A stretch of DNA of 64,000 nucleotides from a virus. Shown in pieces: positions 1 to 61,131 of this stretch. The stretch lies in the IMG/VR virus record IMGVR_UViG_3300020220_003261; one strand, written 5' to 3'. The notes below the pieces were generated by a model. The model did no database searches, had not been told where the DNA came from, and saw only the letters and a list, made by a program, of their open reading frames with translations. Both the position numbers and the translations under genes were made by a program. How positions within the stretch are numbered: position 1 is the first letter of the stretch; every line of letters starts with the position of its first letter.

Positions 1-777
1 GGTATACCCGGTTATGATTTTTTAATCGGATTTACCTCGTATTCAAGATACGCAGTTCAAATATTTGATATTGATAATAATATTATTCATTTAGAATCTA
101 ATATAACAACCAATTATAAAACTAATATTGCTTTAACTATTGACACATATGAAAAAGAAATAAAGATGTATCAAGATGGTGTATTAGTGGACAGTAAAAA
201 AATAAAAAAATTAAGAGATTATTATAGTAAGAATAGAAAATTTTATTTAGGATGTAGTAACCCTAATAGAAAAGACAATCAAAAATTTTTTAAGGGCACC
301 ATATCTAACTTTGCAGTTTTTTCTGACGTGTTAAATTATGATGAAATCAAAGAAATTTCAGATAACAAGTATTTTGGATTGACACAAAACTTCGGTAACT
401 ATAAATCAGACCATAGAGTGATATTATATTATGATGCTAAATTTATAAAGGGTTATAAATTAATTGATTTAAGTGGGAATGGTAATGACGGTGAAATACA
501 CAATTGTGAAATCGTAGGTGAATCATTTGAAGATTACATTGAAATCGAAATACCATACAGAAGAAAATCAACATTTGAATTGATTCCACATAGAGAAAAT
601 GGGTATATTAAAAATGGATGGAAAAATAAATTAACCAGATACAATCAATTAAGATTTTATAATGAAACTCTTAAAGGTTCTACAGATTTTAAAAAAGATG
701 GTTTAAATAATTGTGAATATGTTGAACATTCATACGTAAAAAATAAAAACGAAAATCATATTATTGTAGGAATATAA
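1..777 (+). CDS. GT7 (beta-1,4-galactosyltransferase-like) protein with LamG/ConA insert; 5'-truncated by window edge
   Basis: Frame 1 is open from base 1 (GIPGYDFLIG...) into the 166..777 ORF. C-terminus PYRR..F..IPH.ENG...KDGLN parallels the next gene; LamG-like FYLG..N..FFKGTISNFAVF segment. Confidence 0.75.
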   Translation, partial: GIPGYDFLIGFTSYSRYAVQIFDIDNNIIHLESNITTNYKTNIALTIDTYEKEIKMYQDGVLVDSKKIKKLRDYYSKNRKFYLGCSNPNRKDNQKFFKGTISNFAVFSDVLNYDEIKEISDNKYFGLTQNFGNYKSDHRVILYYDAKFIKGYKLIDLSGNGNDGEIHNCEIVGESFEDYIEIEIPYRRKSTFELIPHRENGYIKNGWKNKLTRYNQLRFYNETLKGSTDFKKDGLNNCEYVEHSYVKNKNENHIIVGI

Positions 778-2201
778 TGGGACATAAGTTAGGTATTTGT
801 ATACCATATAGAAATAGAAAAGATCATATTGATAAATTGATTCCTCATCTATCAAAGTATCTCGGTAATGTTGGAATTGATCACAAATTTTATGTCGGTC
901 ATCAAGTAGACGATAAACTTTTCAATAGAGGGGCAATGAAAAATATTGCAGCTCATTATGCTTTTCAAGAAGGATGTGATTATATTGCTTGGCATGATGT
1001 AGATATGTTAAGTGAAGATAGAGATGGTTTTATTTGTGATTATTCGTATCCGAATTTGAATCCAATTCACATTGCCACAAAATTGTCAAAATACAATTAT
1101 GGTTTAGGTTACGATCAATACTTTGGAGGAGTAGTTCTTTTTACAAAGGAACAGGCTTATCAAACAAATGGTTATTCAAATGATTATTGGGATTGGGGTC
1201 AAGAAGACGATGATTTATTTTGGAGATGTTATTTTGAAGGTATGACGACTGGAAAAATGCTTGAGGGTCATGGTGAAAGAATTGTTGCTGAATTTAATGG
1301 AGATAGTTCTTTTTTAAAAATACCAACAAACAGAGAAATATCTTATTCATTACACAACGAATTCACAATTTCTATTTTATTCAAGGCAGAACAACAACCT
1401 GAAAAAGTTCCAATTTGGCTTGTTGGTGATAAAGAAAAAAAATTCATAGAATATCCTTTAATAAGAAAAGATGGTGCGTGGACTTGGGGACTATCATTCA
1501 ATAATTCAAGAGCTGTAACTATGGTCTTGTTTGATAAAAATAATCAACATTATTATAATTGGGCAAAAAGATTTGAAAACTTATGGACGTGGGTAACTTT
1601 ATCATATTCAAAAGAAAAACGAGGAGCATACCTTTTTGTAAATAATGAATTAATTTGTCAAATGAATGGTGTTAAGGAAAACAAACCATTTTCTGTTAAA
1701 GAAGATCTTAGAACTTTAGATTCAATAAAACCATTTATTATTGGACACTGTCCACATTTAAACACTTTTTATAAAGGGAAAATTGCAGAGATAAAAATCT
1801 CAAATCAATTTACCGAAAATGTTAAAAAAGGAGTCAATAATTTACTATCTCATTATGATTTTGATAAAGGTTTTTTAAATCTTATTGATAAAAAAGAATT
1901 TGAAAATTTTGATGTTAAATTTTCAAAAGAAAATGTTGAAATTATCGAAAATATTTTACCTTTTAGAAGAGAAGGTAATTTTTATTGTATACCACATACT
2001 GATGAAGGTTTTGTAAATGGAACTTGGGCTAAGGGTGAATCAACTGCAAGAAATGAAAGGAGATTTGTAACAGAAATGCAACAGAAAAAAATTAACTATA
2101 AAGAAGATGGATTAAATAAAATTTTAGATGTTTTAACAATTGATGTTATAGATGAAGAACTATACCCTAACACAAAATTTATAAATGTAAGAATGAAATG
2201 A
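777..2201 (+). CDS. GT7 family glycosyltransferase with inserted LamG/ConA-like domain
   Basis: ICIPYRNR, FNRGAMKN, WHDVDM (DxD), YFGGV, GYSNDYWDWGQEDDDLFWR and C-terminal EDGLN match beta4GalT motifs; about 230-aa beta-rich LamG-like insert. Confidence 0.85.
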   Translation: MGHKLGICIPYRNRKDHIDKLIPHLSKYLGNVGIDHKFYVGHQVDDKLFNRGAMKNIAAHYAFQEGCDYIAWHDVDMLSEDRDGFICDYSYPNLNPIHIATKLSKYNYGLGYDQYFGGVVLFTKEQAYQTNGYSNDYWDWGQEDDDLFWRCYFEGMTTGKMLEGHGERIVAEFNGDSSFLKIPTNREISYSLHNEFTISILFKAEQQPEKVPIWLVGDKEKKFIEYPLIRKDGAWTWGLSFNNSRAVTMVLFDKNNQHYYNWAKRFENLWTWVTLSYSKEKRGAYLFVNNELICQMNGVKENKPFSVKEDLRTLDSIKPFIIGHCPHLNTFYKGKIAEIKISNQFTENVKKGVNNLLSHYDFDKGFLNLIDKKEFENFDVKFSKENVEIIENILPFRREGNFYCIPHTDEGFVNGTWAKGESTARNERRFVTEMQQKKINYKEDGLNKILDVLTIDVIDEELYPNTKFINVRMK

Positions 2202-4294
2202 AAATAGAATATCAAAAGCCGTGGTTTATAAAACCAAAATTAACTGAACCACAAACTAATCCACTTATTGATGGTCAATTTACTGTTTCACTTACATTTC
2301 AAGTAGGTAAGGATTTTAAAAAAGACAATAAAATTGGATTTTGGGGTGTGCCAGGTAAAAATATTGGAATTAGTTACGATTACGAAGTGAATTATTTTGT
2401 ATTTGAATTTTGGACTAAAGAAGAAAATGGTGAGGGTAAATTTAATTGTCACATTTATGATTGTATAAATGACAAATCACTTCATAAGGTTTTAAACATA
2501 ACAGTTGTATTCGATGGTGAAATTTATTATTTGTACAAAGATTATAAATTATTTGATACAATAATGAATTCAGCTCAATTGATTGATGATTATAAAAATG
2601 AACCCATTTATTTAGGATGTCATAATATTGATAGTTTAAATCAAAAACACAAATGTATAACTGAATTGGATGTTTTTCATTTTAGTGCTTATAAAAATGC
2701 AATAGATATTGACACAATAAAAAAATATATTGAGAATCCTAAAGAATTACAATTATCGGAAGATTTTAAAAGTACATATTGTTTTTATGATTTAGAAAAT
2801 ACGAATGAAGAATTTTTAATTTTAGATTCTTTTGTTAAGAAAACATTTTTGAAGAAAAAAAATAAAATGTCTTCTGTTGGTTTTGAAATTACAAAAGATA
2901 AATTAGATAGTGTTGGATGTGGTTTTTGTTTGGCAAAATGGACACAAGTTACAATGCATTTACATAATGGTACAACACATAGTTGTCACCACCCCGAACC
3001 ACATAAAATAGGTTTAGAAGAGATTAAAAGAAATCCAACCGCATTACACAATAGTAAAATAAAAAAACAGGCAAGAAAAGACATGTTAGAAGATAAACGA
3101 CCTTCAGAATGTCAATATTGTTGGAATGTTGAAGATAATTCATCATCATTTTCTGATAGAATTTTTAAATCTGCAGAACCGTGGTCTGAACCTTATTTTG
3201 ATGAAATTGCGAAATCAGATTGGAGAGAAGATTATAATCCAAAATATGCCGAAATAAGTTTTTCAAACACTTGTAATTTTAAATGTGCATATTGTGGTCC
3301 AGAATATTCATCAAAATGGATGGAAGAAATTAATGAATTTGGACCTTACAATCTTTCGTTTGAGTACAATGGTACGAGAAGAATGGAGGAAAGAAACACT
3401 AAACCATATAAACAAACACAAGAAAATCCATATGTTAATGCATTTTGGGAATGGTTTCCTGAATTGTACAATAGTTTAGATACATTTAGAATAACAGGAG
3501 GAGAACCATTATTACATAAAGATACTTGGAAAGTTTTAGATTATATTATTGATTCTGAAACTCCAAACAAAAATTTAAAATTATCAATTAATAGTAATTT
3601 AGGAGTTCCAGATGAATTGATTGATAAACTAATTGAAAAATTAGATAAAATTATCAGATGGGAAAGAGTACATGAAATGATAATTTTTACAAGTTGTGAT
3701 GGATATGGTAAACAAGCAGAATACACTAGATATGGATTAGATTTTGAAAAATTATTTCAAAATATAGATAAAATATTAACTAAACTGCCAAGAGTTACTA
3801 TAGTGATAATGTCAACTTTCAATGTATTCAGTATATTTTCATATGAATTATTGATTAAAAAGATATATAAAATGAAATTAAAACATTTCAATAATAAAAG
3901 ATATTGGAATACTGCATTAATTTTAGATACATCTTATTTGAGACACCCACCATTTATGAGTTTCAGAATACTTAAAAATTTTATAAATTTAGATTATTTT
4001 AATCGTTGGATTAAGTATATGAAATTCAATTCAACATTTAGAAGTCTTAACTTTCATAAAACCCAACACATAAGTGATGTGGGTTTCTCAACTCAAGAAA
4101 TAGAAAAAATTAATAGAATTAAAGATATATTTGTTGCAGATTATGAAACACCTATTGAACTTTTTAATAAAGATAAAATAGATTTTTCAAAATTTATAAA
4201 AGAATATGAAGTGAGGAGGGGGTACAATTGTTTGGAATATTTTCCTGAATTAAAAGAATTTATAAAATTAATTGAAAATGAAAATACAATATAA
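2198..4294 (+). CDS. LamG-like domain fused to twitch-domain radical SAM enzyme
   Basis: CLAKW..CHH..CQYCW twitch-like cysteines, then NTCNFKCAYC (CxxxCxxC) and ITGGEPLLH; N-terminal 220 aa LamG-like. Confidence 0.8.
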   Translation: MKIEYQKPWFIKPKLTEPQTNPLIDGQFTVSLTFQVGKDFKKDNKIGFWGVPGKNIGISYDYEVNYFVFEFWTKEENGEGKFNCHIYDCINDKSLHKVLNITVVFDGEIYYLYKDYKLFDTIMNSAQLIDDYKNEPIYLGCHNIDSLNQKHKCITELDVFHFSAYKNAIDIDTIKKYIENPKELQLSEDFKSTYCFYDLENTNEEFLILDSFVKKTFLKKKNKMSSVGFEITKDKLDSVGCGFCLAKWTQVTMHLHNGTTHSCHHPEPHKIGLEEIKRNPTALHNSKIKKQARKDMLEDKRPSECQYCWNVEDNSSSFSDRIFKSAEPWSEPYFDEIAKSDWREDYNPKYAEISFSNTCNFKCAYCGPEYSSKWMEEINEFGPYNLSFEYNGTRRMEERNTKPYKQTQENPYVNAFWEWFPELYNSLDTFRITGGEPLLHKDTWKVLDYIIDSETPNKNLKLSINSNLGVPDELIDKLIEKLDKIIRWERVHEMIIFTSCDGYGKQAEYTRYGLDFEKLFQNIDKILTKLPRVTIVIMSTFNVFSIFSYELLIKKIYKMKLKHFNNKRYWNTALILDTSYLRHPPFMSFRILKNFINLDYFNRWIKYMKFNSTFRSLNFHKTQHISDVGFSTQEIEKINRIKDIFVADYETPIELFNKDKIDFSKFIKEYEVRRGYNCLEYFPELKEFIKLIENENTI

Positions 4295-5015
4295 AGAACC
4301 ATATTGGGTAAAATTTGAATGGGATGTATCTGAACATCATGATAACCAATATGTGACCGCATTTGATAAAAGTGAAAACATAATATTTAGAGATTTTTTA
4401 CACAAAGACAAATACATATTAACTTGTAACTTCAAGTTAAAAAAACACTATAAAAAAGATGAAATATGTATGGTATTTGGTAAACCAGGTAAAAACTTAG
4501 GTTTATCGTACAATGAGGGGTCTAAAGTTTTAGCTTTTGAATTTTGGACTAAATCCGAAGATGGGGATAAGTTCAATATGGTAATATCTAAAACTGTAAC
4601 AACTAAGGACATTGAAAACGGAGTCACTATATCAATAGTAAGAGACGTTAATAAAATATCAATTTTTAAAAATTTTGAATTTGATAATACAGTAGAATTC
4701 AATGGTAATTTAGTTGATGACTATAAGGATAATGCTTTTTTTATTGGTTGTTCAAGTCCAGATATAGAATCAGAAAAACATAGATATTATTGTGAGGTTA
4801 GTATAAATCATTTATCACACATATCAAATACAAATAGTATTGAAATAGCTAAAGAAATTTGTGAAAACGAAACTCATAACTTACCAATGAGAAAATATTA
4901 TGAAGATATTTTATTCTATTATGATTTCAAAACAGTAAACAATATTGGTATTGTTTATGATGAATCAAAGTATACAAATTTTTTAGAAAAAGTTCCAACA
5001 GAGTATATTAAGTAA
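4278..5015 (+). CDS. Standalone LamG/ConA-like domain protein
   Basis: Paralogous to the N-terminus of 2198..4294 (KIQYKEPYW/KIEYQKPWF, GKPGKNLGLSY/GVPGKNIGISY, FEFWTK). ATG at 4278 preferred over TTG 4272. Confidence 0.7.
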   Translation: MKIQYKEPYWVKFEWDVSEHHDNQYVTAFDKSENIIFRDFLHKDKYILTCNFKLKKHYKKDEICMVFGKPGKNLGLSYNEGSKVLAFEFWTKSEDGDKFNMVISKTVTTKDIENGVTISIVRDVNKISIFKNFEFDNTVEFNGNLVDDYKDNAFFIGCSSPDIESEKHRYYCEVSINHLSHISNTNSIEIAKEICENETHNLPMRKYYEDILFYYDFKTVNNIGIVYDESKYTNFLEKVPTEYIK

Positions 5016-5046
5016 AATAAATTAATTAAATTATAATAAAAAAATT

Positions 5047-6495
5047 ATGTCAAAACAATTAGTAAAATGGAGAGATAAACATTTAAATTCTATAAGTAAT
5101 AGTTTTTGTGCGGCAAAATGGTTCAATGTAAGTTTACATTTAGGACACGGTTTTACAAATTCGTGTCATTTACCACTACCACATCCAATAGATTTGGAAA
5201 AAATTAAAACAAATCCCTCTGCACTTCATAATACTGATTTCAAAAAGGAGATTAGGAAGATGATGTTAGAAGGAACAAGACCGGCCGAATGTTCGTATTG
5301 TTGGAGAATTGAGGACATTGGTAGAAATAATGTTTCTGACAGGGTCTATAAAAGTCAAATATACAAGGAACAAGACATTGCTTCCATAAAAGACATACCA
5401 TGGGACGCTGATGTTATGCCAAAAACAATTGAAGTAAGTTTTGATAGAATTTGTAATTTTGCATGTACTTATTGCAATTCGGGTTATAGTACGAAATGGG
5501 GAAAAGACATTAAAGATAATGGACCGTATCAAAAGTTCAAAACAACGAGTGCGGGTGCATATTATGCAGACGGTTCATGGTCTGAAATATATGGAAAGTA
5601 TGGTGAGAATAATCCTTATGTTAAAGCATTCTTAGAATGGTGGCCTGAATTATCACAAAATTTAGAAGAAATTAGAATTACTGGTGGAGAGCCCTCCCAA
5701 AGCCATAACTTTTGGAAGTTTATGGAAATAGTAAAACAATATGATTCTCCGAATCTAAGAGTAGCTATTAATTCAAATTTAGGACAAACAGAGAGAACTA
5801 TTGATAGACTTATAAATGTAACAAAAGAAATAAAGGTAAAAGAATTTGATTTATACACAAGTTGTGAAGCATATGGAAAACATGCAGAATATATTAGAGA
5901 TGGTTTGAATTATAAAATATGGAGACAAAACTTAGTCAATATAATTGAAAATGCGAATATCAGACAAGTTGTTATTATGATGACAATAAATAATTTGTGT
6001 CTATTCAGTATCACTGATTTTATGAATGATATGTTAGAATTAAAAGCTAAGTATGGTTGGAATAAACCAATTTTAGATTTAAACATTCTGAGATGGCCCG
6101 CATTTATGTCACCACTTACCTTACCCAATGAATTTAAACACATATTACATGACAATTTGAAAACATGGTATGAAATGCAAGAGAATAATGAACTTTTAAA
6201 CATACATGAGAGAGGTCAAATTGAAAGACTAATTGATTACATAGAAGTTGTCAATAGAGGACATATTACAACAGAATTAGATAATGTATCACAATATCAT
6301 GATTTTAAAAGCTTTTATGTCCAATACGATTTAAGAAGAAATAAAAATTTTCAAGATACTTTTCCACAATTATCAGATTGGTTTAATGAAATTATAGTTG
6401 ATAAAAGTATACCTGATGTTAGTGTAACAGACGGAAGAATCACACATTTTGAACCAGGAATATACGTGTCAGATAAAGATAATTACAATAAGTAA
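5047..6495 (+). CDS. Twitch-domain radical SAM enzyme
   Basis: FCAAKW..SCH..CSYCW, ICNFACTYC, ITGGEP; paralogue of the C-terminal part of 2198..4294. Confidence 0.85.
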   Translation: MSKQLVKWRDKHLNSISNSFCAAKWFNVSLHLGHGFTNSCHLPLPHPIDLEKIKTNPSALHNTDFKKEIRKMMLEGTRPAECSYCWRIEDIGRNNVSDRVYKSQIYKEQDIASIKDIPWDADVMPKTIEVSFDRICNFACTYCNSGYSTKWGKDIKDNGPYQKFKTTSAGAYYADGSWSEIYGKYGENNPYVKAFLEWWPELSQNLEEIRITGGEPSQSHNFWKFMEIVKQYDSPNLRVAINSNLGQTERTIDRLINVTKEIKVKEFDLYTSCEAYGKHAEYIRDGLNYKIWRQNLVNIIENANIRQVVIMMTINNLCLFSITDFMNDMLELKAKYGWNKPILDLNILRWPAFMSPLTLPNEFKHILHDNLKTWYEMQENNELLNIHERGQIERLIDYIEVVNRGHITTELDNVSQYHDFKSFYVQYDLRRNKNFQDTFPQLSDWFNEIIVDKSIPDVSVTDGRITHFEPGIYVSDKDNYNK

Positions 6496-6560
6496 TGATT
6501 ACATATAATAAGACCTTAAGGTGAATATAAATTAGATTCAAAACCCATTTCTAAATCAAA

Positions 6561-7865
6561 ATGATGAATTTTTTGTTTGAAGATATTAAAGAATTAAAAA
6601 ATTTTATTGCATGTAAAGATCTTTGTCCTTCAGGTATTCCAAGATTTGGAGTTTCACCATTAGTTAATGTTATAAACATTCTCATATACGAAAAAAAACA
6701 TGGATTCAAATCTGTTGAGGTTGAGTGTGATAATTACATAATTTCAGCGGGTGTTAACCATAGTCCAGATGATTGGACAGGGTATAATCCGAGAGTTGAA
6801 AGTCTATTCAGTTACTTAAATGAAAAATACCTTAACGATTTAAGAAGTGGAAAGGCACTCATTATGTTAGATCAAAGTTTTGAAGGGTACCAAACTAATT
6901 GGTTATGGGAATGGTTTCATCAAGAATGTTCAAATCATAATATTCCCCCACAATCAATTGTATATGTGACGGGTAACATGATTGTAGATGAGGTATATAC
7001 AGAATGGGCAGATAAAAATAATATCAATGAAAGAATAAAACCAATTGGTTATCCACATTTTGAAATTGATGTAGCAATGAATGCAATAAACAGACCTACA
7101 GTTTCAAATCAACTACCATTACCAACATTCAAAGAACATGTGGAATATAAAAGTAAAAATAAGATAAAAACTTTTTCATGTCTTAATAAAAGAATTAGAC
7201 CACATAGGGTTTGGTTTTATAATTATTTATTTCACTCAGGATTGATTGAAATGGGTTTGGTGAGTATGAATGAGTTTTATAAAAATTCATATAAATGGGA
7301 AGGAAAAGAAATACCTTTGGATGTAATTGATAAATTAGGAGATTCATTACCACTTAGAGTTTACGGCAAACCAAACGACGAACTCGATGATAATTTTTAT
7401 ATTAATAGATTTAATCCTGAAATTTGTTTAGATACGTATGTTAGTGTCGTTAGTGAAGCACATTGTGGTGATAGTGATCAAACTATGTTTTTGAGTGAAA
7501 AAATATTCAAACCTATTGCAACAAGGCATCCGTTCATGGTAATGGGTAATAAAAATAGTATGAAAAAAATGAGGGAAATTGGTTACAAAACATTTGATGA
7601 ATTTATTGACCAATCTTATGACTCTTTACCTACACACGAAAGATTACAATATCTTATAGAGTGTATAAGAAAAATTGATAATATCGAGGATAAACAATCA
7701 TGGTTTAAATCTATGGAAAACGATGTGGAACATAATTATAATGTTTTAATTGGTAATATATTTAATAAAAAAGTTCCCGCTTTTACAAAATTAGAAGAAT
7801 ACTATAAACAATATTTTAAAATAGAATTTGATGCAACAAAGAAGATACCTACCAACATTATCTGA
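6561..7865 (+). CDS. Putative GT-B glycosyltransferase (GT10-like paralogue family, copy 1)
   Basis: VSVVSE..FLSEKIFKPI..HPFMVMG..GYKTFDEFIDQSYD motif shared by six paralogues; resembles the EN..(I/V)TEK donor-binding motif of GT10. Confidence 0.5.
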   Translation: MMNFLFEDIKELKNFIACKDLCPSGIPRFGVSPLVNVINILIYEKKHGFKSVEVECDNYIISAGVNHSPDDWTGYNPRVESLFSYLNEKYLNDLRSGKALIMLDQSFEGYQTNWLWEWFHQECSNHNIPPQSIVYVTGNMIVDEVYTEWADKNNINERIKPIGYPHFEIDVAMNAINRPTVSNQLPLPTFKEHVEYKSKNKIKTFSCLNKRIRPHRVWFYNYLFHSGLIEMGLVSMNEFYKNSYKWEGKEIPLDVIDKLGDSLPLRVYGKPNDELDDNFYINRFNPEICLDTYVSVVSEAHCGDSDQTMFLSEKIFKPIATRHPFMVMGNKNSMKKMREIGYKTFDEFIDQSYDSLPTHERLQYLIECIRKIDNIEDKQSWFKSMENDVEHNYNVLIGNIFNKKVPAFTKLEEYYKQYFKIEFDATKKIPTNII

Positions 7866-53102: not shown

Positions 53103-53103
53103 A

Positions 53104-53850
53104 TTAAATTTTTTCTTTTGCTCTAACTTCTTTTAATGGATTTTTAGAATGATTAATATAATTGTTTATATCAATCGGACAACCAAAATCTTCCGTTAAA
53201 CCACCGTGTTTAAGTTCTTTATTGTACAGTTTAAAACAAGATTCTAAAACCCAATTATCCGCCCATTCAGGTTCATTTACAAAAACATTACCTGATAAGT
53301 AATAATTTAAATAAAATTTTGCGAAATCTTTAGTCTTTTCATTAATTTTTATGAATTGAAAACCACTTTCTATCCAATCTTTATATCTCAGTATAACCAA
53401 CCAATCATTTTCTTCAAAATATTCATAAAAGTTATCAGGTAAATCTTTACATAGATAAGAGTCAACATCCGCCCAAATCATTACATCACCTATTTCAAAC
53501 ATTTCAATTGCGTCACAAATTGCAACTACTTTTCTAAACCAAAAGGGAGAATTCTTCATATAATAATTTGAAGATTTATAACAATCTTTAAAAGGTGATG
53601 TGATTAGAAAATCTTTTAACCATTTATTATTTTCAAATAAATCCATGTATTGAATATTTTTATAATTTTCTAATTTTGAAAAATCAATAGATTGATTATA
53701 CATAGAATTATCGAATGAATTTTCATGATAAACAAAAATTTTATTTTTTGTATATGAATTAGGTATGTTTTTCATGAAAAGATTGTGACTATGATTATAC
53801 AATCTTGTATTGAAAGAGGTAACAAATTTATAATTTTCAGGTAATTTCAT
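53104..53850 (-). CDS. Putative GT-A (DxD) glycosyltransferase
   Basis: FRKV.AI, MIWADVDS, ESGF, WADNWV. Confidence 0.55.
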   Translation of the reverse strand: MKLPENYKFVTSFNTRLYNHSHNLFMKNIPNSYTKNKIFVYHENSFDNSMYNQSIDFSKLENYKNIQYMDLFENNKWLKDFLITSPFKDCYKSSNYYMKNSPFWFRKVVAICDAIEMFEIGDVMIWADVDSYLCKDLPDNFYEYFEENDWLVILRYKDWIESGFQFIKINEKTKDFAKFYLNYYLSGNVFVNEPEWADNWVLESCFKLYNKELKHGGLTEDFGCPIDINNYINHSKNPLKEVRAKEKI

Positions 53851-53851
53851 T

Positions 53852-54712
53852 TTAATATTTTTGTGATATTACTCTTGATATTTCAGCAAAACTACTTAGT
53901 GGGTGATATATCAATATGTTAGTGTGTGCCAATAAATAAATGTCTTCTAACCCCTCTTGTGCAACTTCTGTGGTTATCGCAAAACTTGTATGATCATTCC
54001 ATTCTTTTTTGGAATCTTTTTTAACTATGTAATTTTCTTTTTTCCTTAATATGATACTGTCACTAAACAAATCACATATTACATTTTCATAATCAGGATC
54101 TTCAGTTGATAGAAAAATTTTTTGTTTAGGATTTTGTTCTAATAATTTTTTTATTGCATTAACATATAAGGTCAGAGGTGCACCAAAATCTGTTCCTCTA
54201 GCATGAACACCAATCACATTTTTATTTAAACCTAATTCCCCAACATAGTGATCTATTTTTTGTTGAACTTTTTTTATTGGTTTAAGATTTATTAAGAATT
54301 CAGCGCAGTCTTTTTTATCTACAGTTGGTAAAAAGTTATTATGGTATATTATAACATTTTTTTGTTTATCGTCATATGAAAATGATTCGTAATGTCTATA
54401 TGGATTCTTCAAAGACAATTCTTTTAAAGTAGTTCTTCCAAACTTTGTGACTTCTCTGTCTATACCGTGACCACCGTGACCCGATTCTGTTAACAATAAA
54501 CAATCATCTAAATTAGAAAGATCTTCTAATGAAAGAACATCAAGATCGTTTTCGAATAACTCATCAAATCTTGCTAAACAACCGTTTGTAGTGATGTTGT
54601 CCCAATATGCTTTTAATTGTCTACCAGATTTTTTTGAAATTGCATAACAAGAAGATAATGGTCTCAACCTATTTCCCATTCCACTTGTTGAATAATTTAT
54701 TATTGTTTTCAT
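53852..54712 (-). CDS. NodZ/O-fucosyltransferase-like glycosyltransferase
   Basis: SGMGNRL, IGVHARGTD, IFLSTED, DIYLLA..SSF. Confidence 0.7.
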   Translation of the reverse strand: MKTIINYSTSGMGNRLRPLSSCYAISKKSGRQLKAYWDNITTNGCLARFDELFENDLDVLSLEDLSNLDDCLLLTESGHGGHGIDREVTKFGRTTLKELSLKNPYRHYESFSYDDKQKNVIIYHNNFLPTVDKKDCAEFLINLKPIKKVQQKIDHYVGELGLNKNVIGVHARGTDFGAPLTLYVNAIKKLLEQNPKQKIFLSTEDPDYENVICDLFSDSIILRKKENYIVKKDSKKEWNDHTSFAITTEVAQEGLEDIYLLAHTNILIYHPLSSFAEISRVISQKY

Positions 54713-55411
54713 TTAATATTTTTTATGTTTTCCTTGATCTTCAAAGTATTCATTTCCTTCGTTCTTTCCCCCCATTGAAAATAAGTTTGAAAATCCCCTT
54801 AATCTTTTCTTTTTTATTCTATCTTTCATTCTCCATAAACAGAAAGGAAAACTTATTTGATCTCTTGAACTAAATCTACATAGTTGTTCCCACCACATTA
54901 GTTGTAATTCTTTAACCACATCACTTGTTTTAACAATAAAAGTTGACATTTCGAATAAACCAAAATCGGTTGGCATTCCCATATACTTATAAAATTTAAA
55001 CTGATTTTCTAAATTTTCTCTGTGATCAAGTTGCCATTGCGCACAAGCTGATATTTCTTGATATATACATTTTCTGTCAGGATGTTTAAAAAGAAAAAGA
55101 TCTACATCAGAACCGTATTCATCTATTATACTTTGAGGATCTTTTTTTAGTTGGTGATTACCGTCTACCCAAATTATGTATTCATATTGTGGAAACATCA
55201 GGGAACTTATAATTTTGTAAGGCTTAGCGTTTCTTCTGTTTGTAAAATTATCAATATTTGAAAATTTAAAAACATCTTTTTGTTCCCATACTTTTACTTC
55301 GTACGATTTATCAACAAATGAAATGTAATCACAATTATCAAAAACTATTAGGGGATCCACTAAATCGTCTTTTCCATCTGTGATTGATGTTATTACTAAA
55401 AATTTTTTCAT
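54713..55411 (-). CDS. DUF616 (TOD1/MUCI70-like) glycosyltransferase
   Basis: TSITDGKDDL, IWVDGN, HPDRKCIYQE, RDQISFPF. Confidence 0.8.
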   Translation of the reverse strand: MKKFLVITSITDGKDDLVDPLIVFDNCDYISFVDKSYEVKVWEQKDVFKFSNIDNFTNRRNAKPYKIISSLMFPQYEYIIWVDGNHQLKKDPQSIIDEYGSDVDLFLFKHPDRKCIYQEISACAQWQLDHRENLENQFKFYKYMGMPTDFGLFEMSTFIVKTSDVVKELQLMWWEQLCRFSSRDQISFPFCLWRMKDRIKKKRLRGFSNLFSMGGKNEGNEYFEDQGKHKKY

Positions 55412-55412
55412 A

Positions 55413-56399
55413 TTATCGCCAAAATGAATATAATCCGTTTCTTATTTCGTATTCAGACCATTTATATCTTTCTCTTTTTGGTTGTTGTTTAGCCCATTCC
55501 CACATAATTTTAATTCCATCATACAGTGATGTCCTATCACAATAACCAAGGATCTCAACCGATTTTTGCCACGTTGGATGTGCATTTTTTACTTCATGTC
55601 TTTGTTCTATATAAACAGTTTGACCCCCTTGAATGATATCTTTTAAAATATTATTAGCCTCATTTATGGTATAGTATTTTGTGGCACCTAAATTAAAAAT
55701 TTGTTTAGAACAATTATCTTGTTGTGAGGCTCTCCATAAACCCTCTAAAGAATCATCAATAAAACTAAATGCTCTTTTTTGTTCACCATCACCAAATATT
55801 GTCATCTTTTCACCATTCATATATTGATACATCCAAATACCAATTACGTTTCTATATTTGTCCCAAATATTTTGTTTTACACCATAAAAATTATGAGGTC
55901 TTATAATACACCAATCCAATCCGTGTTGTTCACCTGCTACTTTAATATCCATTTCACATGCATATTTTGCGATACCATAGGGATCAACTGGTTGAGGTAA
56001 ATCATTTTCATTAAACGGAGGGTTACCATTTCCATAAACGGCCATTGAGGAAGTAAAAACCAATCTTTTTATATTATGTTTGATACAGGCATTTACAATT
56101 TTAACTGTTGCAATCAAATTATTTTGATAGTTGTAACTTCTTATAAATGGTGATAGTCCTTCTGCGGCATAGGCTGCGAAATGAAAAACATAATCAATTT
56201 TTCTTCTACTAAAACAAACATCTAAATCCGCCTCCACCAAATTCATTTTCCAAAAATCAACACGAGTATCAACATTGTCTAAATAACCACCACTCAAATC
56301 ATCTATGCCTGTAATTTTAATATCGGGATACTTTTCTAAAATATAATCTGCTAATCTCGAACCGAGTAAACCAGCAACACCTGTTATAAGAACATTCAT
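55413..56399 (-). CDS. NAD-dependent epimerase/dehydratase (GalE-like)
   Basis: ITGVAGLLG, HFAAYAAEGLSPF, DPYGIAK, RPHN.YG, GDGEQKRAFS. Confidence 0.9.
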   Translation of the reverse strand: MNVLITGVAGLLGSRLADYILEKYPDIKITGIDDLSGGYLDNVDTRVDFWKMNLVEADLDVCFSRRKIDYVFHFAAYAAEGLSPFIRSYNYQNNLIATVKIVNACIKHNIKRLVFTSSMAVYGNGNPPFNENDLPQPVDPYGIAKYACEMDIKVAGEQHGLDWCIIRPHNFYGVKQNIWDKYRNVIGIWMYQYMNGEKMTIFGDGEQKRAFSFIDDSLEGLWRASQQDNCSKQIFNLGATKYYTINEANNILKDIIQGGQTVYIEQRHEVKNAHPTWQKSVEILGYCDRTSLYDGIKIMWEWAKQQPKRERYKWSEYEIRNGLYSFWR

Positions 56400-57019
56400 A
56401 TAGTATTATAAAAATTATTTTGATTTTCTTGTCTTGTTATTGTTTTGTTATGTTCAATAAAATATTCATCATTATCCACTGGGATTAGAGAATAATATTT
56501 CGCACCAATAATTTTTTCATGAACTTTACCCTCCCACCTCAAATTACCTTTATAAATTCTTCCTTGATAATCAGGGAAGTTTATTCTCATTTTATCATCC
56601 ATATTCCATCGCCAGTTTCTAATATGTTCCATAGTTATACCCTCAACGGTATTTAAACGTGGAATATAAAATAAATCTGTCTCAGGATTCAATTCAATAA
56701 TACTTGGTAAGTCTCTAATCAAATCTTTACTTATCATTTCATCAGCATCTAATTGAAATATATAATCTCCAACACAATAATAATTCAATCTGTTTTTCCA
56801 TTCGGCAAAATCTTTTCTAAATCCATTATTCCTCCAAATCTGAACATCTGGTTTTAAATTATAAGGTAAAAGAAAATCTAAAACTTCTTTAAATCCATTT
56901 TTTTCATCAAATAAAATAACAATTTCATCTTCTATCCTTTTGTTCTCAAGAATAAAGGGTAACAATCTTTTAATTTCATCTAATTCATTACAAACTGTAA
57001 TCGCATAACTTATTTTCAT
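56396..57019 (-). CDS. GT2 family glycosyltransferase
   Basis: ISYAITVCNE, YIFQLDADE, FPDYQGRIY, W.GKVHE. Confidence 0.85.
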   Translation of the reverse strand: MKISYAITVCNELDEIKRLLPFILENKRIEDEIVILFDEKNGFKEVLDFLLPYNLKPDVQIWRNNGFRKDFAEWKNRLNYYCVGDYIFQLDADEMISKDLIRDLPSIIELNPETDLFYIPRLNTVEGITMEHIRNWRWNMDDKMRINFPDYQGRIYKGNLRWEGKVHEKIIGAKYYSLIPVDNDEYFIEHNKTITRQENQNNFYNTI

Positions 57020-57288
57020 GCTCTCTCACCTCCTTGATTTATTTCTCTTGCAAAAATTTTGAATGTTCTTCCGTTATCATTAAAAATAATATTTCCATTT
57101 GGTGTCGGTGTAATAACTAAATGTAAATTGTTTTCACCAGATCCCAAATGGACAGGATCATTATCATCAAATTGAAAACAGAACTCTACATTGTGTCTAT
57201 CAAATGATAAAATTGGTTGAACTAAAAAAGTTTCATTTTGTAAAAATCTAATTTCAGGATCCTTACCTCTTAGAAATTTAAAATTCAT
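57016..57288 (-). CDS. Hypothetical protein
   Basis: ORF coupled to flanking genes (4-nt overlap / 2-nt gap). Confidence 0.7.
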   Translation of the reverse strand: MNFKFLRGKDPEIRFLQNETFLVQPILSFDRHNVEFCFQFDDNDPVHLGSGENNLHLVITPTPNGNIIFNDNGRTFKIFAREINQGGERA

Positions 57289-57290
57289 AT

Positions 57291-58541
57291 TTAATTTACT
57301 TTAGTCAATTTTGGTAGAACAATTTTATTTTCAAATGGTTGATTTATATAAGGCGTTAATATTTCAATTAATTTTTCTTTCATTTTATTTAAAGTAAACT
57401 TTGATAGGTTCTCTTTTCTTAATGTTTCTGATCTTTCTAAAAAATTATCATAATCCTTTTCTACTATTTTCATAACCTCTATCACCTCATTGTAATTTGC
57501 GGTAAACCATTTTGAACCTTTGATAATAAATTCATTTATGGATGATTCGTGAACTTCGGTCAAAGACCCCCCAACCATTATTGCCTTATCCATGGGTAAA
57601 AAATCTTTGTGTCCAGACCAATTAGATGCAATTACCGGTTTACCCGTCATTGTGAATTCTAACAATGGTCTACCAAATCCTTCCCCTTTTGTAATTGAAA
57701 TCATACACTTTACTTTGGGATGATTATACAGATTATTCATTTCTGAATCACTTAGCTCACCAAATAAAAGATATATCGAAGGTGGATTTTCTGATTGATC
57801 TATTATGGATTTAATTTTCTTTCGAAAATTTTCTCTTTCTTTGATTGAAAAATTTGCAGAAGACGTTTTTAAAATTAATGCAGGTTTATTTTCATGATTT
57901 TTAAAAGACTCATTAAAACATTTAATTAACATACCCACATCTTTTCTATCGTGTCCTAATTTACCATTCAACCAATGACCAACAAATAAAAATGCAAAAT
58001 CTTCATTGATTTCTAAATCAATTTTTTCATATGTGTTATTAAAAATATTTTCATTAATACCCTCGAATAGTATTTCAATTGGAGTTTTAATTTTATGTTG
58101 ATTTACTAATTTACCGGTATTTTTTTCTGTTTCATTATAAACTGTTTGTAGTAAAACATCTCTTGAAAACAAAGAAGTAGTAATAATTAAATCCATTTTA
58201 TTACAACCATCAATCCAAGATTTAGGTGCGATTGTTGTTTCAATACCCGCAGTTATTCCAATATTGAACTTTCCCTTTCTTTGAAATTCGTTTGGAACCG
58301 TAACCTCAATATAGATATCTGGAGTGGGAATTGTACTTGTTATAAAATTTGACTCAATCCATTTATGAAATTGATTGGTCTCTTCCAACGCTGTCATCGG
58401 ATTCATACCCCAACCACAACTATCAATTTTAATATCGAACAAATCTGATTCATATAAAACCTCCAATAAATCTCTTGAATGTGATCCATAACCACTTCTT
58501 GATTTTACTGGTCCTCTAAATAATAAAAAGGGTTTATTCAT
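57291..58541 (-). CDS. GT4-like glycosyltransferase
   Basis: SGYGSHSRD, FLFVGHW, TKGEGFGRPLLEF..GKPVIASNWSGH. Confidence 0.85.
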   Translation of the reverse strand: MNKPFLLFRGPVKSRSGYGSHSRDLLEVLYESDLFDIKIDSCGWGMNPMTALEETNQFHKWIESNFITSTIPTPDIYIEVTVPNEFQRKGKFNIGITAGIETTIAPKSWIDGCNKMDLIITTSLFSRDVLLQTVYNETEKNTGKLVNQHKIKTPIEILFEGINENIFNNTYEKIDLEINEDFAFLFVGHWLNGKLGHDRKDVGMLIKCFNESFKNHENKPALILKTSSANFSIKERENFRKKIKSIIDQSENPPSIYLLFGELSDSEMNNLYNHPKVKCMISITKGEGFGRPLLEFTMTGKPVIASNWSGHKDFLPMDKAIMVGGSLTEVHESSINEFIIKGSKWFTANYNEVIEVMKIVEKDYDNFLERSETLRKENLSKFTLNKMKEKLIEILTPYINQPFENKIVLPKLTKVN

Positions 58542-59896
58542 ACAATTTTATATAAGTCGAATTTTTTTCTTGGTTTGAAATTTTTTATTACACTATCAAT
58601 ACCCTCTGACATTTTTTCACACATAATTTTACTTGATAAATTTTTTAACATAAATTCTCTTCCTAACAAACCTCTTCTTTTTCTTTCCTCTCTTGTCCAA
58701 TTATAAACTTTTTCTATAGCATCCGCAACTTCATAATCGTCTACTCTGTCATCGAAAATATATGGAGTTGCGGGTGATCCATTTATATTAATCGCTGATG
58801 GCCATATTGGAACAACCCATTCACCATAATTTATTGATCCATGTATTCTTTTATCATGTAACGTTCCTAAAGAAATATAATCATTTTCATTGAAATCAAA
58901 CCCCATTTGGTCTTGTAAACCACCTGTGACATTTGCTATAATCGGTGTTCCAGCCATCAATGATTCTGCGGTAGTTAATCCAAACCCCTCATTATTTGCA
59001 ATGTTAATTGTGCAATCAACAATATTATAAATCTCATTTAACTTTTCCTGTTCAATTTTTTGACCAATAAACTTTACATTATATTTAGGACAAACTGTAT
59101 TTACCACCTCGTATAAATCCGTCCCATTGTCATCAATCGGTATTGTATGCATCAACAACAAACATTTATTTGCCCTCTCTTTAGGTAATCTATCACAAAA
59201 TAGTTTGAAAGAATAGACAACATCTGATGGTTGTTTTCTTCTTATGTTTCTATTATTATAAAACAAAATGAAATCTAAGTCCTCACTCCCTTTTATAAGA
59301 TCGTATATATCATTACCAACATTTTGTAATGGTTTAAAAGTGTTGTGATTAATACCATGTGGGACATAACTTATCTGCCAATCATCTAATGGTTTAAATG
59401 TTATTTCATCTTTTCTTTTACCTACTCTATGAACTATACCATATGTTTGTTTCGAGATGCAACCTATCCAATCGCAGCTTTCATAATAATTTCTATTATA
59501 AAAAGGATCAGGTAGATTATCCCAAATGTGATAATAAAGTATTGGAACTTGTTGTCTTATTTCGTGTTCGTTGTCATATAACCACTGCCAATAATGAGGA
59601 TCAGTAAAATGTAAAATTGCATCAGGTTTTTCTTCTTGCAAAAGTTTTCTGATAACAGAAATATCACCATATCCGTTGTATGGTATTATTTTAAGACTCG
59701 CATCTTTTATACCTGTTCTTTTTTTTATATCATCATCAATAGATACAATTTTTCCTAATTCAGGATGATTAATCGCGGAACCTAGTTGAACCCAATCATA
59801 TTTTTCTATCGTTCCCATGACAAATTCTTTCGACATAGTAGATATGCCAGATGTCATCCTCAAGTCATCCGATAGTAATAATATCTTTTTTTTCAT
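58538..59896 (-). CDS. GT4 glycosyltransferase
   Basis: LLSDDLR, VPHGIN, NRNIRRKQ, NEGFGLTTAESLMAGTP. Confidence 0.9.
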   Translation of the reverse strand: MKKKILLLSDDLRMTSGISTMSKEFVMGTIEKYDWVQLGSAINHPELGKIVSIDDDIKKRTGIKDASLKIIPYNGYGDISVIRKLLQEEKPDAILHFTDPHYWQWLYDNEHEIRQQVPILYYHIWDNLPDPFYNRNYYESCDWIGCISKQTYGIVHRVGKRKDEITFKPLDDWQISYVPHGINHNTFKPLQNVGNDIYDLIKGSEDLDFILFYNNRNIRRKQPSDVVYSFKLFCDRLPKERANKCLLLMHTIPIDDNGTDLYEVVNTVCPKYNVKFIGQKIEQEKLNEIYNIVDCTINIANNEGFGLTTAESLMAGTPIIANVTGGLQDQMGFDFNENDYISLGTLHDKRIHGSINYGEWVVPIWPSAININGSPATPYIFDDRVDDYEVADAIEKVYNWTREERKRRGLLGREFMLKNLSSKIMCEKMSEGIDSVIKNFKPRKKFDLYKIV

Positions 59897-60154: not shown

Positions 60155-60329
60155 ATTCATTTTTTGTTAACTCTTTGATTCGATTAACAATTTCGTTTAA
60201 CTGTTCATCTTGTTTTGATTTCTCTATTTCAGTCTGATTTAGTAGTGAAGCTTCTGTAACTGTTAAAGAAACTTGTTGTGGCTCAGATGAAGGTTGAATG
60301 ATCTTCTTTTTTTTACATCCACATCCCAT
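60153..60329 (-). CDS. Small 58-aa protein starting MGCGCKKKK; not in ORF track
   Basis: Open frame with its own TATTTATA motif (60342..60349) and a terminator. Confidence 0.7.
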   Translation of the reverse strand: MGCGCKKKKIIQPSSEPQQVSLTVTEASLLNQTEIEKSKQDEQLNEIVNRIKELTKNE

Positions 60330-60408
60330 GTCTATTTTTTTTATAAATATTTTGATTTATATTTTTATAAAATATAGAGAAAAAAATAATTACAGTCAAC
60401 AGTTAGTA

Positions 60409-61131
60409 ATGAAAATTGGAGTCACAGGTTGTTCACATTCAAGTTATATTTGGGGTAATCCTTGGCATTTTTACTTATCCGAAGAATTTAAAGCAGAAGT
60501 TATTTATACATGTTCACCTGGTGCAGGTAACGAAATGAATTTCGAAAAAATGAAATATACGATAGAAACATATAATGTGGATTATTTTATATTTCAAATA
60601 TCTGATCCCTCAAGGTTGGTTATGGGTATTAATAATTGGGTAAATGAACATGAAATTAACAGAAACCAAATGATACCAAACCTGAGTATAAATGAACAGA
60701 TGAGACATGGTCAAATTTTTAGAGACTTATATTTTTATACTTTTAATGCACATAAAAACGAAAAAAACTTAGAAAAAATATTTGAGAAGAAACTACCCGT
60801 GGATGATTTTATGATTAATCATGTCATGACATCAACATATAACATTGAATATAAAGTGTTCATGACTATGTGTGCAACAAAGTTTATCTGTGATTTTTAT
60901 GGTATTCCTCTAATATTTTTTAGTTGGTTTACGGATATAAACGAACTATCAAAAAAAGTAGGATATAATAACATTTTAGAAAAAATGAATATAGTTCCTG
61001 GTTGTGTTATTGACTTTATAAATGAGAACAAAATAGAAGCAATACCGAACGATGGACACTACGATGGTGATTCTCATCTTAAAATTTATCGAGAATATCT
61101 TAGTCCATATATTAAAACAATTATAAAATAA
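60409..61131 (+). CDS. SGNH-family protein (GCS variant)
   Basis: VTGCSHS, PGAGN, DGHY. ATG 60409 preferred because the track start at 60298 overlaps the opposite-strand ORF. Confidence 0.65.
   Translation: MKIGVTGCSHSSYIWGNPWHFYLSEEFKAEVIYTCSPGAGNEMNFEKMKYTIETYNVDYFIFQISDPSRLVMGINNWVNEHEINRNQMIPNLSINEQMRHGQIFRDLYFYTFNAHKNEKNLEKIFEKKLPVDDFMINHVMTSTYNIEYKVFMTMCATKFICDFYGIPLIFFSWFTDINELSKKVGYNNILEKMNIVPGCVIDFINENKIEAIPNDGHYDGDSHLKIYREYLSPYIKTIIK

Follow-up and report, generated by a model that had tools for sequence, protein, structure and literature searches.

A conserved glycan island around collagen-like fibre genes in T4-type freshwater jumbo phages: a candidate cytoplasmic pathway for fibre glycosylation

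Introduction

What a bacteriophage does with some 60 kb of glycan genes is the question raised by a 64,000-nucleotide stretch of viral DNA, IMG/VR record IMGVR_UViG_3300020220_003261 (the window). A preliminary description, made from the letters alone, proposed that the island in this stretch assembles a complex decorated glycan on phage proteins in the cytoplasm. The analysis reported here puts at about 0.5 the probability that the island is a cytoplasmic glycan factory of roughly 60-64 kb which would act on the phage's own Ser/Thr-rich fibres, the phage being a T4-type lake jumbo phage. Central to the argument is a predicted bifunctional enzyme (41454-43574) that contains a relative of the protein O-glycosyltransferase TibC and is encoded directly upstream of a collagen-like fibre gene.

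Phage virion glycosylation is treated in the literature consulted as a mycobacteriophage phenomenon. Established by experiment are only a few mycobacteriophage glycosyltransferases (GTs), and the glycan clusters of T4-like cyanophages are without an identified acceptor. Virion protein glycosylation and enzymes of the bacterial autotransporter heptosyltransferase (BAHT) type are already known; what the window adds is scale and context, in the form of a conserved, export-free island of about 60 kb and 17 GT genes around fibre genes. It also supplies a concrete enzyme-acceptor hypothesis (a TibC-like enzyme and a Ser/Thr-rich collagen-like fibre) in a widespread freshwater jumbo-phage clade, and because the same pairing is present in the cultured Microcystis phage Mel-JY01, the question is directly testable.

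A conserved island in a clade of jumbo phages

Three near-complete relatives of the window, here called G001 (316 kb), G002 (335,630 bp) and G003 (326 kb), are 95-100% complete by CheckV (G002 100%), and each has a capsid protein of the T4 Gp23 family (E 1e-62 to 1e-64). G002 has homologues for 51 of the 66 window proteins, the conserved ones in the same order at 252-307 kb, and the collinearity extends beyond the window, up to 18 kb on the upstream side and 20 kb on the downstream side. The viral origin assumed in the preliminary description is borne out by this collinearity with a CheckV-complete 335-kb genome that encodes the T4 Gp23 capsid protein. G003 has homologues for 45 of the 66 proteins, with an island that spans the contig ends. 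Homologues of the GT7 protein of the window (48-74% identity) occur in 79 IMG/VR viral loci, many of them on 300-335-kb contigs. Pieces identical to the window are found in JGI and Logan lake-water assemblies, and the longest recorded contig carrying a window protein measures 181,887 bp. By capsid protein, the nearest isolates are Microcystis phage Mel-JY01 (41%), the Flavobacterium 'immuto' phages (40.5%) and Rhodothermus RM378; megablast of window positions 28-48 kb against cultured phages gives no match. Judged by gene content and order, the window belongs to a T4-type clade of freshwater jumbo phages in which the island is conserved. The 'Moraphage' jumbo phages (PMC12619734) were considered as that clade and set aside, as nothing links them to this T4-like group.

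The island occupies window positions 1-59896 and starts about 4 kb upstream of the window. It is densely packed, neighbouring genes often overlapping by 1-4 nt, and lies in DNA of about 28% GC without tRNA genes. Strand blocks alternate: plus at 1-9769, minus at 9766-21203, plus at 21276-47616 and minus at 47613-59896. The T4 late-promoter motif TATAAATA occurs 23 times in the window against 20.8 expected; it is not enriched and gives no clue to expression timing.

A TibC-like enzyme beside a collagen-like fibre

Four consecutive genes form the core of the argument.

38036-40798, plus strand: 920-aa fusion of a GT4 glycosyltransferase and an FkbM methyltransferase (Glycos_transf_1 E 7e-15; Methyltransf_21 (FkbM) E 3e-17)
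40795-41454, plus strand: Methyltransf_24 methyltransferase (Pfam E 2e-7), of a family that is fused to a TibC-like domain in locus L185
41454-43574, plus strand: 706-aa predicted bifunctional protein, an N-terminal GT-A domain and a C-terminal relative of the TibC/Aah-type (BAHT) protein O-glycosyltransferases (phmmer against TibC 4RAP, E 2.4e-58)
43626-46220, plus strand: 864-aa tail-fibre-like protein, the proposed acceptor (Collagen E 3e-44; Peptidase_S74 E 2e-16)

The cytoplasmic enzyme TibC of Escherichia coli adds heptose to serine residues of the adhesin TibA (PMC4358343). It requires Asp110, Lys230 and the four cysteines of its iron finger, the D110A variant being catalytically inactive and K230A binding-deficient (PMC4358343). 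The window protein, whose start was read from the sequence at a TAATG overlap, matches TibC over its C-terminal 360 aa (query 381-736 against TibC 26-385 of 406), and Asp110, Lys230 and the iron-finger residues Cys339/342/358/370 are all conserved in the alignment. Its N-terminal 337 aa form a GT-A domain in an AlphaFold2 model (pLDDT 85), with fold matches to alpha3GalT (E 3e-6), to the collagen GTs LH3 and COLGALT1 and to PBCV-1 A64R (2P6W). By sequence and predicted fold, the 41454-43574 product joins a GT-A domain to a true TibC relative, and so includes a relative of a protein O-glycosyltransferase. A literature search for links between TibC or the BAHT enzymes and phages, or for work on Mel-JY01, found no relevant paper.

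The fibre gene begins 51 nt after the stop codon of the enzyme gene. Its product combines a fibre-like N-terminus, two proline-free (S/T)SG tracts of Gly-X-Y type (318 residues in total) and a C-terminal Peptidase_S74 intramolecular chaperone domain. Three more such fibres are encoded immediately upstream of the window (739, 1134 and 722 aa, with 135, 645 and 366 repeat residues), and in the window genome, G002 and G003 alike the fibres flank the island or lie within it. ORFs this rich in Ser, Thr and Gly number only five in all 335 kb of G002. Around the GT7 genes, a repeat fibre lies 4-10 kb upstream in 16 of the 35 loci with full flanks, against 13-16% of random windows. The repeats also leave a mark on the DNA: over window positions 44000-46000 the GC content rises from about 28% to 42%, and long spurious ORFs appear on both strands (44447-45319, 44620-45237 and 44626-45279).

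The arrangement recurs well beyond the window. Among 116 viral contigs that encode a TibC-like protein, 80 were examined, of which about 65 have room downstream of the gene. At about 45 of these a same-strand gene starts 54-104 nt after the TibC-like stop and encodes a protein with 25-51% Ser+Thr, a pattern that holds down to 45-52% enzyme identity, although the surveyed loci are mutually related and the counts stand neither for independent events nor for a probability. The 735-kb phage LR756501 encodes a repeat protein two genes from its TibC-like gene. In cultured Mel-JY01, (S/T)SG-repeat ORFs lie on both sides of a gene for a GT4-TibC-like fusion (4750-8430). One of them (PP395634, 2-3049) is a 1016-aa plus-strand ORF that small minus-strand CDSs overlie in the deposited annotation, and a second repeat region (PP395634, 9143-9983) is seemingly split over two frames; the collagen-like fibres of Mel-JY01 are probably mis-annotated.

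Gene fusions tie the enzyme to its upstream neighbours. In other phages the TibC-like domain shares one polypeptide with GT4, FkbM, Methyltransf_24/23/25, GT2 or GT25 domains. Since GT4+FkbM and Methyltransf_24 are also the two genes directly upstream of the TibC-like gene here, at least 38036-46220 is placed in one pathway. At loci L128, L161, L165, L179 and L185, TibC-like domains belong to multi-enzyme polypeptides of up to 1606 aa (GT4, GT2, GT25, FkbM, class I methyltransferases), which can be read as whole predicted glycan assembly lines in a single protein. G002 carries a second, stand-alone TibC-like gene (286340-287452), 51% identical to the window enzyme, within its tailoring cassette and directly after a radical SAM (S-adenosylmethionine) gene.

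Gene complement of the island

The preliminary description had counted about 18 GT-like genes, and 17 genes carrying 18 GT domains are indeed found. Eleven genes are assigned by Pfam (two GT7/LamG, GT4+FkbM, GT9/TibC-like, Anp1-like, two GT2, NodZ-like, TOD1/MUCI70-like and two GT4) and six come from a virus-only GT-B family; the additional GT-A domain is recognised by fold. Pfam further assigns enzymes of nucleoside diphosphate (NDP)-sugar metabolism, namely two GDP-mannose 4,6-dehydratases, five short-chain dehydrogenase/reductase (SDR) epimerase/reductases, one RmlC-like epimerase and one UDP-Glc/GDP-Man dehydrogenase. Tailoring enzymes comprise one NodU/CmcH carbamoyltransferase, five methyltransferase domains and three radical SAM proteins, next to five oxygenases of the 2-oxoglutarate (2OG)/Fe(II) type (four 2OG-FeII_Oxy_3, one PhyH). 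An adenosine phosphosulfate (APS)-kinase-like protein and two halves of a thiamine diphosphate (TPP) enzyme resembling pyruvate dehydrogenase E1 (PDH-E1) or transketolase complete the list. Of the decorations that had been proposed, methyl, carbamoyl, hydroxyl (2OG/PhyH) and radical chemistry are supported by Pfam or NCBIfam; sulfate is weaker (an APS-kinase-like match at E 2e-19 and further leads), as is acyl (one SGNH match at E 0.003). The tail fibre that the island was said to flank has both collagen-type Gly-X-Y periodicity and a Peptidase_S74 domain. PHROGs, searched with 23 of the genes without assignable function, returned only 'kinase' and 'FabG-like' matches; because it recognises almost none of them, these families are essentially absent from cultured phages.

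Six paralogues, linked by all-against-all blastp and without a Pfam match, make up the GT-B family: three close tandem members (15271-19080) and three distant ones (6561-7865, 21276-22586 and 25727-26734). At least 210 homologues at E <= 1e-5 all come from uncultured material, the nearest Atlas clusters are 100% viral, and some homologues are fused to GDP-fucose-synthase-like SDR domains. The paralogues have no Glyco_transf_10 match in Pfam (E<0.01), and two alignment profiles match no PDB sequence; because neither Pfam nor PDB sequences match, they are set apart from GT10. They are GT-B glycosyltransferase-like and possibly fucosyltransferase-like.

Export machinery and donor supply

The preliminary description had recognised no Wzx/Wzy, initiating transferase or ligase and had judged almost all products soluble, and both statements stand. 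A Kyte-Doolittle scan of the window products finds none with two or more transmembrane (TM) candidates and no polytopic membrane protein. Whole-genome scans of G002 and G003 find no polytopic protein of Wzx/Wzy size, only a few 4-6-TM ORFs (109-382 aa) without a relevant Pfam family; the largest multi-TM ORFs of G002 (204-382 aa) belong to no export-related Pfam family. No initiating phosphoglycosyl transferase is matched by Pfam in the window, and PF02397 (Bac_transf) and PF00953 (WecA/MraY-type) are absent from all three near-complete relatives. The same is true of PF01943 (Wzx) and PF04932 (Wzy/ligase), ABC2_membrane not having been searched as a family; the hidden Markov model (HMM) controls were positive in 10-13 of 14 genomes. 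Nor does the window show signs of a Gtr-type system (GtrA, GtrB, polytopic GtrC): it holds no multi-TM ORF, and its GT2 products are without TM segments, GtrA not having been searched for by HMM.

Donor synthesis, as first proposed, turns out to be overstated. NDP-sugar remodelling enzymes are present, but sugar-1-phosphate nucleotidyltransferases and GmhA (SIS_2) were not found in the three relatives, so the phage would remodel host NDP-sugars and not build donors from scratch.

A proposed pathway

In the proposed pathway, soluble enzymes would draw on host NDP-sugars (GDP-Man, UDP-Glc and dTDP- or GDP-6-deoxyhexose precursors). Dehydration, epimerisation, reduction and oxidation to the uronate would reshape these sugars, possibly together with TPP-dependent branching. 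The GT-A/TibC-like enzyme 41454-43574 would then prime Ser/Thr residues of nascent or assembling proline-free Gly-(S/T)-S collagen-like fibres, one encoded in the window and three upstream. The fused GT-A domain, the GT4-FkbM protein, the methyltransferases and probably also many of the remaining 15 GTs would extend and decorate the O-glycan, with methylation, carbamoylation and perhaps sulfation, hydroxylation and radical-SAM chemistry as the decorations. Glycosylated fibres would be built into virions and freed at lysis. With an acceptor protein that stays in the cytoplasm until lysis, the pathway would need no lipid carrier, flippase or polymerase. The phage might gain a stiffer or protease-protected proline-free triple helix, or adhesion. 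Glycosylated Thr stabilises the cuticle collagen of Riftia, an analogue for a triple helix free of proline and hydroxyproline. Four parts of this scheme are inferred: the fibre as acceptor, the identity of the first sugar, the notion that the rest of the island (about 50 kb) serves that glycan, and what the phage gains.

A more ambitious version is held only tentatively and at less than even odds. The island might be the most elaborate protein-glycosylation pathway known from any bacterial virus, with 17 soluble GTs and about 25 remodelling and tailoring enzymes that place methylated, carbamoylated, possibly sulfated, uronate- and deoxyhexose-containing O-glycans on about 1,400 proline-free Gly-Ser/Thr-Ser residues. 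Such mucin- or proteoglycan-like fibres would be made wholly in the cytoplasm, priming being the task of a BAHT enzyme taken over from the adhesin biology of bacteria.

Alternative explanations

Several observations weigh against fibre glycosylation by the island as a whole. Besides the relatedness of the surveyed loci, about 20 of them carry a TibC-like gene without an adjacent Ser/Thr-rich gene, phage LR756504 has no repeat protein within 10 kb of its TibC-like gene, and in G003 the TibC-like gene and the fibre stand about 45 kb apart across the contig ends. Over the beta-hairpin thumb of TibC (Phe265/Val266, dodecamer assembly) the alignment has a gap of three residues, and the window enzyme does not have Phe/Val at the tip. 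The relatives are without GmhA, that is, without an ADP-heptose pathway, and the donor would be host-made or another sugar. The genome of the window itself is covered over about 102 kb, a stretch that is collinear with G002 throughout and stops short of the capsid region, and the absence of export genes is thus shown for the relatives only. About 20 island genes are without assignable function, and the cassette at 29.6-38 kb is rich in 2OG and radical SAM enzymes, which also modify peptides; its target could be a peptide or small molecule. These last two points equally favour a composite island, in which only the module of about 8 kb at 38036-46220 would serve the fibres. The other operons might then yield a small glycoconjugate or an oligosaccharide in free form, a peptide modified by the 29.6-38 kb cassette, or glycans attached to further proteins of phage or host. 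A division into four or more transcription blocks with alternating strands, a swappable cassette (48713-55411) without a syntenic counterpart in G002 or G003 and the scatter of island parts in G003 fit the same picture. A composite of this kind is plausible for the 29.6-38 kb cassette but as a whole fairly unlikely, given that G002 keeps the block order as one unit beside the fibres and has its second TibC-like gene inside the 'tailoring' cassette, and that fusions tie the TibC-like domain to several enzyme types spread over the island.

The soluble products would also fit a pathway that makes or alters a host surface glycan (lipopolysaccharide (LPS), capsule or S-layer) by way of the host's undecaprenyl-phosphate priming, flippase and ligase. 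Bacterial O-antigen GTs are mostly soluble or peripheral, and families of O-antigen type (RmlC, Gmd, WbuC cupin, GT2, GT4) are represented in the island, which would draw its donors from host pools. Soluble GTs can also work on membrane lipid-linked intermediates, and a phage without export genes could use those of its host, which again counts against a purely cytoplasmic route to the fibres. Clusters of GTs and NDP-sugar epimerases in P-SSM2, S-SCSM1 and S-SCSM2R are interpreted in terms of the host envelope (PMC12801897), the usual view of such cyanophage gene sets. Against such remodelling, which we regard as fairly unlikely, stand the absence of priming transferase, flippase, polymerase and ligase from the three near-complete relatives, the position of the island among fibre genes and the short time that a lytic T4-like phage has for rebuilding an envelope; moreover, the one GT with a close characterised relative is of the protein O-glycosyltransferase type and is paired with a fibre gene. 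Glycosylation of modified DNA bases as a defence against restriction, known from T4 and from recently described phages whose DNA carries multi-sugar glycans, is highly improbable. The nearby ThyA-family gene is an ordinary thymidylate synthase by its best PDB matches, and G002 has the full island without a match to PF00303 (ThyA family), which argues against hydroxymethyl-base glycosylation; 17 GTs with carbamoyl, methyl and uronate chemistry go far beyond known DNA glycans, and TibC is a protein GT. A Tet_JBP search gave no match, but its control was silent and the search is uninformative. Finally, the fibre is the only phage hallmark gene within the 64-kb window, as would suit a bacterial chromosomal polysaccharide locus misassigned to a virus. 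That reading fails because window and flanks are collinear with a complete, T4-like 335-kb phage genome, and it is scarcely credible beside the viral contigs with homologues (79 for GT7, 116 for the TibC-like protein), the viral-only status of the homologous families in Atlas and the lack of membrane and export genes in the window.

Assembly of a decorated glycan on phage proteins in the cytoplasm, the central proposal of the preliminary description, is supported in part, by the TibC relative directly upstream of a Ser/Thr-rich fibre, by neighbourhood and fusions and by the lack of membrane proteins in the window and of the export families searched for in the three relatives. That all of the roughly 60 kb acts on virion proteins is a step that we infer, and the 29.6-38 kb cassette may have another target.

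Comparison with known systems

Closest to the proposed enzyme-acceptor pair are TibC-TibA and Aah-AIDA-I (BAHT; 4RAP/4RB4), in which a cytoplasmic enzyme is likewise encoded directly upstream of a Ser-rich repetitive surface protein (PMC4358343). The window enzyme differs in being phage-encoded and fused to an extra GT-A domain. The BAHT acceptor is a Ser-rich beta-helical autotransporter, whereas here the presumed acceptor is a proline-free Gly-X-Y collagen-like fibre with an S74 domain. The window enzyme also sits among about 15 further GTs, and a complex glycan would be expected in place of single heptoses.

The mycobacteriophages of Freeman et al. 2023 reportedly use only a few GTs and infect Actinobacteria. 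With the window they share phage-encoded soluble GTs near structural genes, working in the cytoplasm without lipid carriers. Their targets are the C-termini of capsid and tail-tube subunits (PMC12619734), whereas here the fibres are the likely target of 17 GT genes, donor remodelling and many tailoring enzymes. The cyanomyovirus clusters for 'LPS / cell-wall synthesis and modification' (P-SSM2, S-SCSM1, S-SCSM2R) resemble the island in belonging to T4-like phages, in their large complements of GTs and NDP-sugar epimerases and in having no obvious export genes (PMC12801897). The 13 GTs of S-SCSM2R were called possibly the highest number in a marine phage (PMC12801897). In contrast to the window, the assumed target of those clusters is the host surface or DNA, and no acceptor is known for them; the island is larger (17 GT genes) and pairs a protein-O-GT relative with Ser/Thr-rich fibres.

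Among giant viruses, the capsid of chlorovirus PBCV-1 and the fibrils of Mimivirus carry decorated virion glycans that are virus-encoded, cytoplasmic and independent of the ER and Golgi, and the genes for NDP-sugar enzymes and methyltransferases lie in clusters. Those viruses have eukaryotic hosts, another capsid architecture and N-linked or fibril glycans; the window belongs to a tailed phage with a BAHT-type priming enzyme. If the proposed pathway is right, tailed phages would share with giant viruses the lipid-carrier-free cytoplasmic synthesis of complex virion glycans. The pathway would also explain how proline-free collagen-like fibres could be stabilised, and virus-only GT families, among them a GT-B family of hundreds of members, would acquire a role, with a bearing on phage adsorption, environmental stability and glyco-engineering tools.

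The remaining genes of the island

Upstream of the enzyme-fibre module, the following features were recognised.

1-777, plus strand: C-terminal 258 aa (of 473) of a GT7 (beta4GalT-like) enzyme with a LamG-like module (Pfam Laminin_G_3 E 2e-9); the complete gene, with GT7N, GT7C and LamG, lies at L001:8580-10001 of an identical JGI contig
777-2201, plus strand: GT7 (beta4GalT-like) enzyme with a LamG-like module (Glyco_transf_7C E 2e-18, 7N E 4e-15; best PDB matches beta4GalT7 and beta4GalT1, E ~1e-28)
2198-4294, plus strand: twitch-type radical SAM enzyme with an N-terminal accessory domain (NCBIfam NF033640, 314 bits, cut-off 170)
4272-5015, plus strand: free-standing copy of that accessory domain (blastp E 4e-26 to residues 1-220 of the 2198-4294 product; no Pfam match)
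5047-6495, plus strand: second twitch-type radical SAM enzyme (NF033640, 304 bits; 38% identity to the 2198-4294 product)
6561-7865, plus strand: distant member of the GT-B (FucT-like) paralogue family (blastp E 2e-26 to the 21276-22586 product; invariant H-R, E and E-K-P columns)
7828-9012, plus strand: two small genes, a conserved 135-aa one (no Pfam match; 79% identical homologue in G002) and a weakly SGNH/GDSL-like one of 257 aa (Lipase_GDSL_2 E 0.0033)
9005-9769, plus strand: PhyH-type 2OG/Fe(II) dioxygenase (Pfam PhyH E 4e-19)
9766-10314, minus strand: TPP-enzyme half, PDH-E1-beta/transketolase-pyrimidine-like (Transket_pyr E 6e-5; NCBIfam PDH E1 beta E 8e-9), with its partner half at 19065-19694
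10307-11961, minus strand: two paralogous genes, 277 and 274 aa (37% mutual identity; no Pfam match; one homologue in G002)
11962-12600, minus strand: class I SAM methyltransferase (Pfam MTS E 3e-11)
12593-15274, minus strand: SDR epimerase/dehydratase, 2OG-Fe(II) oxygenase and second SDR (Epimerase E 5e-43 and 2e-37; 2OG-FeII_Oxy_3 E 2e-9)
15271-19080, minus strand: three tandem GT-B-like paralogues (427, 431 and 418 aa) of the virus-only family, possibly fucosyltransferase-like
19065-19694, minus strand: TPP-enzyme half, PDH-E1-alpha-like (E1_dh E 1e-16; TIGR03182 E 2e-26, under cut-off)
19691-21203, minus strand: RmlC-like 3,5-epimerase and SDR (RmlD/reductase-like) (dTDP_sugar_isom E 1e-29; Epimerase E 5e-35)
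21276-22586, plus strand: distant member of the GT-B (FucT-like) paralogue family (blastp links to the 6561-7865, 17824-19080 and 25727-26734 products; invariant columns)
22583-24602, plus strand: 226-aa protein of a multi-copy family (three copies in G002), Methyltransf_24 methyltransferase (E 6e-7) and 254-aa protein
24604-25740, plus strand: UDP-glucose/GDP-mannose dehydrogenase, for a uronic-acid donor (UDPG_MGDP_dh E 3e-16; N-terminal domain E 9e-14)
25727-26734, plus strand: short distant GT-B (FucT-like) paralogue (blastp E 2e-14 to the 21276-22586 product; included in the family alignment)
26734-28404, plus strand: NodU/CmcH-type O-carbamoyltransferase (Carbam_trans_C E 1e-63, Carbam_trans_N E 1e-57)
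28562-29367, plus strand: APS-kinase-like P-loop protein and small HxGH nucleotidyltransferase-like protein (APS_kinase E 2e-19; HAGH motif in the 28993-29367 product)
29645-38035, plus strand: tailoring cassette with three 2OG-Fe(II) oxygenases, one radical SAM enzyme, two sulfotransferase-like P-loop proteins (lead only), an SDR-like protein, a 482-aa protein and others (2OG-FeII_Oxy_3 at 29645, 32125 and 35559; Radical_SAM at 34044)

The LamG-like module is tied to four consecutive enzymes (1-777 and 777-6495): it occurs in both GT7 proteins, at the N-terminus of the 2198-4294 radical SAM enzyme and as the separate gene 4272-5015 before the second radical SAM gene. It looks like a fused-and-split pair and is possibly a shared substrate-addressing domain. 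The TPP halves lie 9 kb apart, near both ends of the minus-strand operon; in some antibiotic pathways, paired halves of this kind attach two-carbon branches to sugars.

The APS-kinase-like gene (144 aa) lacks the C-terminal third of the Pfam profile and is directly followed by the HxGH gene (124 aa), a pair kept in G002 and G003. One unassigned protein of a searched batch, in the context of 28562-29367, matches cytidylyl/adenylyltransferase families, and the pair may form a minimal module for activated sulfate or another nucleotide donor. In the tailoring cassette, the sulfotransferase leads are a P-loop resembling the motif for 3'-phosphoadenosine 5'-phosphosulfate (PAPS) and a neighbour cluster in Atlas where Sulphotransf is present in 12% of the proteins; phmmer against the PDB gives nothing significant for the sulfotransferase-like 35090-35587 product or for the 32696-33418 product. 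The 482-aa ORF (30185-31633), which has no match in Pfam or NCBIfam, lies among the 2OG, radical SAM and sulfotransferase-like genes, and the surrounding cassette may act on a peptide and not on a glycan.

Downstream of the fibre, the island continues to 59896, with one gene of uncertain membership beyond it.

46529-47616, plus strand: 149-aa protein and Anp1/GT-A-like GT (Anp1 E 5e-8), both kept beside the fibre in G002 and G003
47613-48722, minus strand: GT2 (Glycos_transf_2 E 6e-10)
48713-55411, minus strand: variable GDP-sugar cassette with an SDR, two GDP-mannose 4,6-dehydratases (GDP_Man_Dehyd E 1e-112 and 1e-118), a short DegT-like protein (DegT E 2e-17), a methyltransferase, a probable WbuC-like cupin, one unassigned protein, a NodZ-like GT (NodZ E 2e-7) and a TOD1/MUCI70-like GT (TOD1_MUCI70 E 2e-22)
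55413-59896, minus strand: SDR epimerase, GT2 and two GT4 (Epimerase E 8e-45; Glycos_transf_2 E 5e-8; Glycos_transf_1 E 4e-9 and 8e-9)
60298-61131, plus strand: 277-aa protein with an N-terminal hydrophobic stretch (one weak segment at residue 2; no Pfam match), at the island edge and of uncertain membership

One unassigned protein of the island gave the WbuC cupin match, probably the 52689-53102 product. The 48713-55411 cassette has no syntenic counterpart in G002 or G003, where most of its genes are without a match and the rest have weak, paralogue-level matches elsewhere; on this comparison it is a predicted swappable GDP-sugar module within a conserved island.

Outside the island (window 61211-63342 and L007:11576-12688) lie genes for a stand-alone PT-HINT protein (140 aa), a DUF192 protein, a saccharopine-dehydrogenase-like protein and a 370-aa thymidylate synthase with an insertion. 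A role in polyamine metabolism is possible for the saccharopine-dehydrogenase-like gene.

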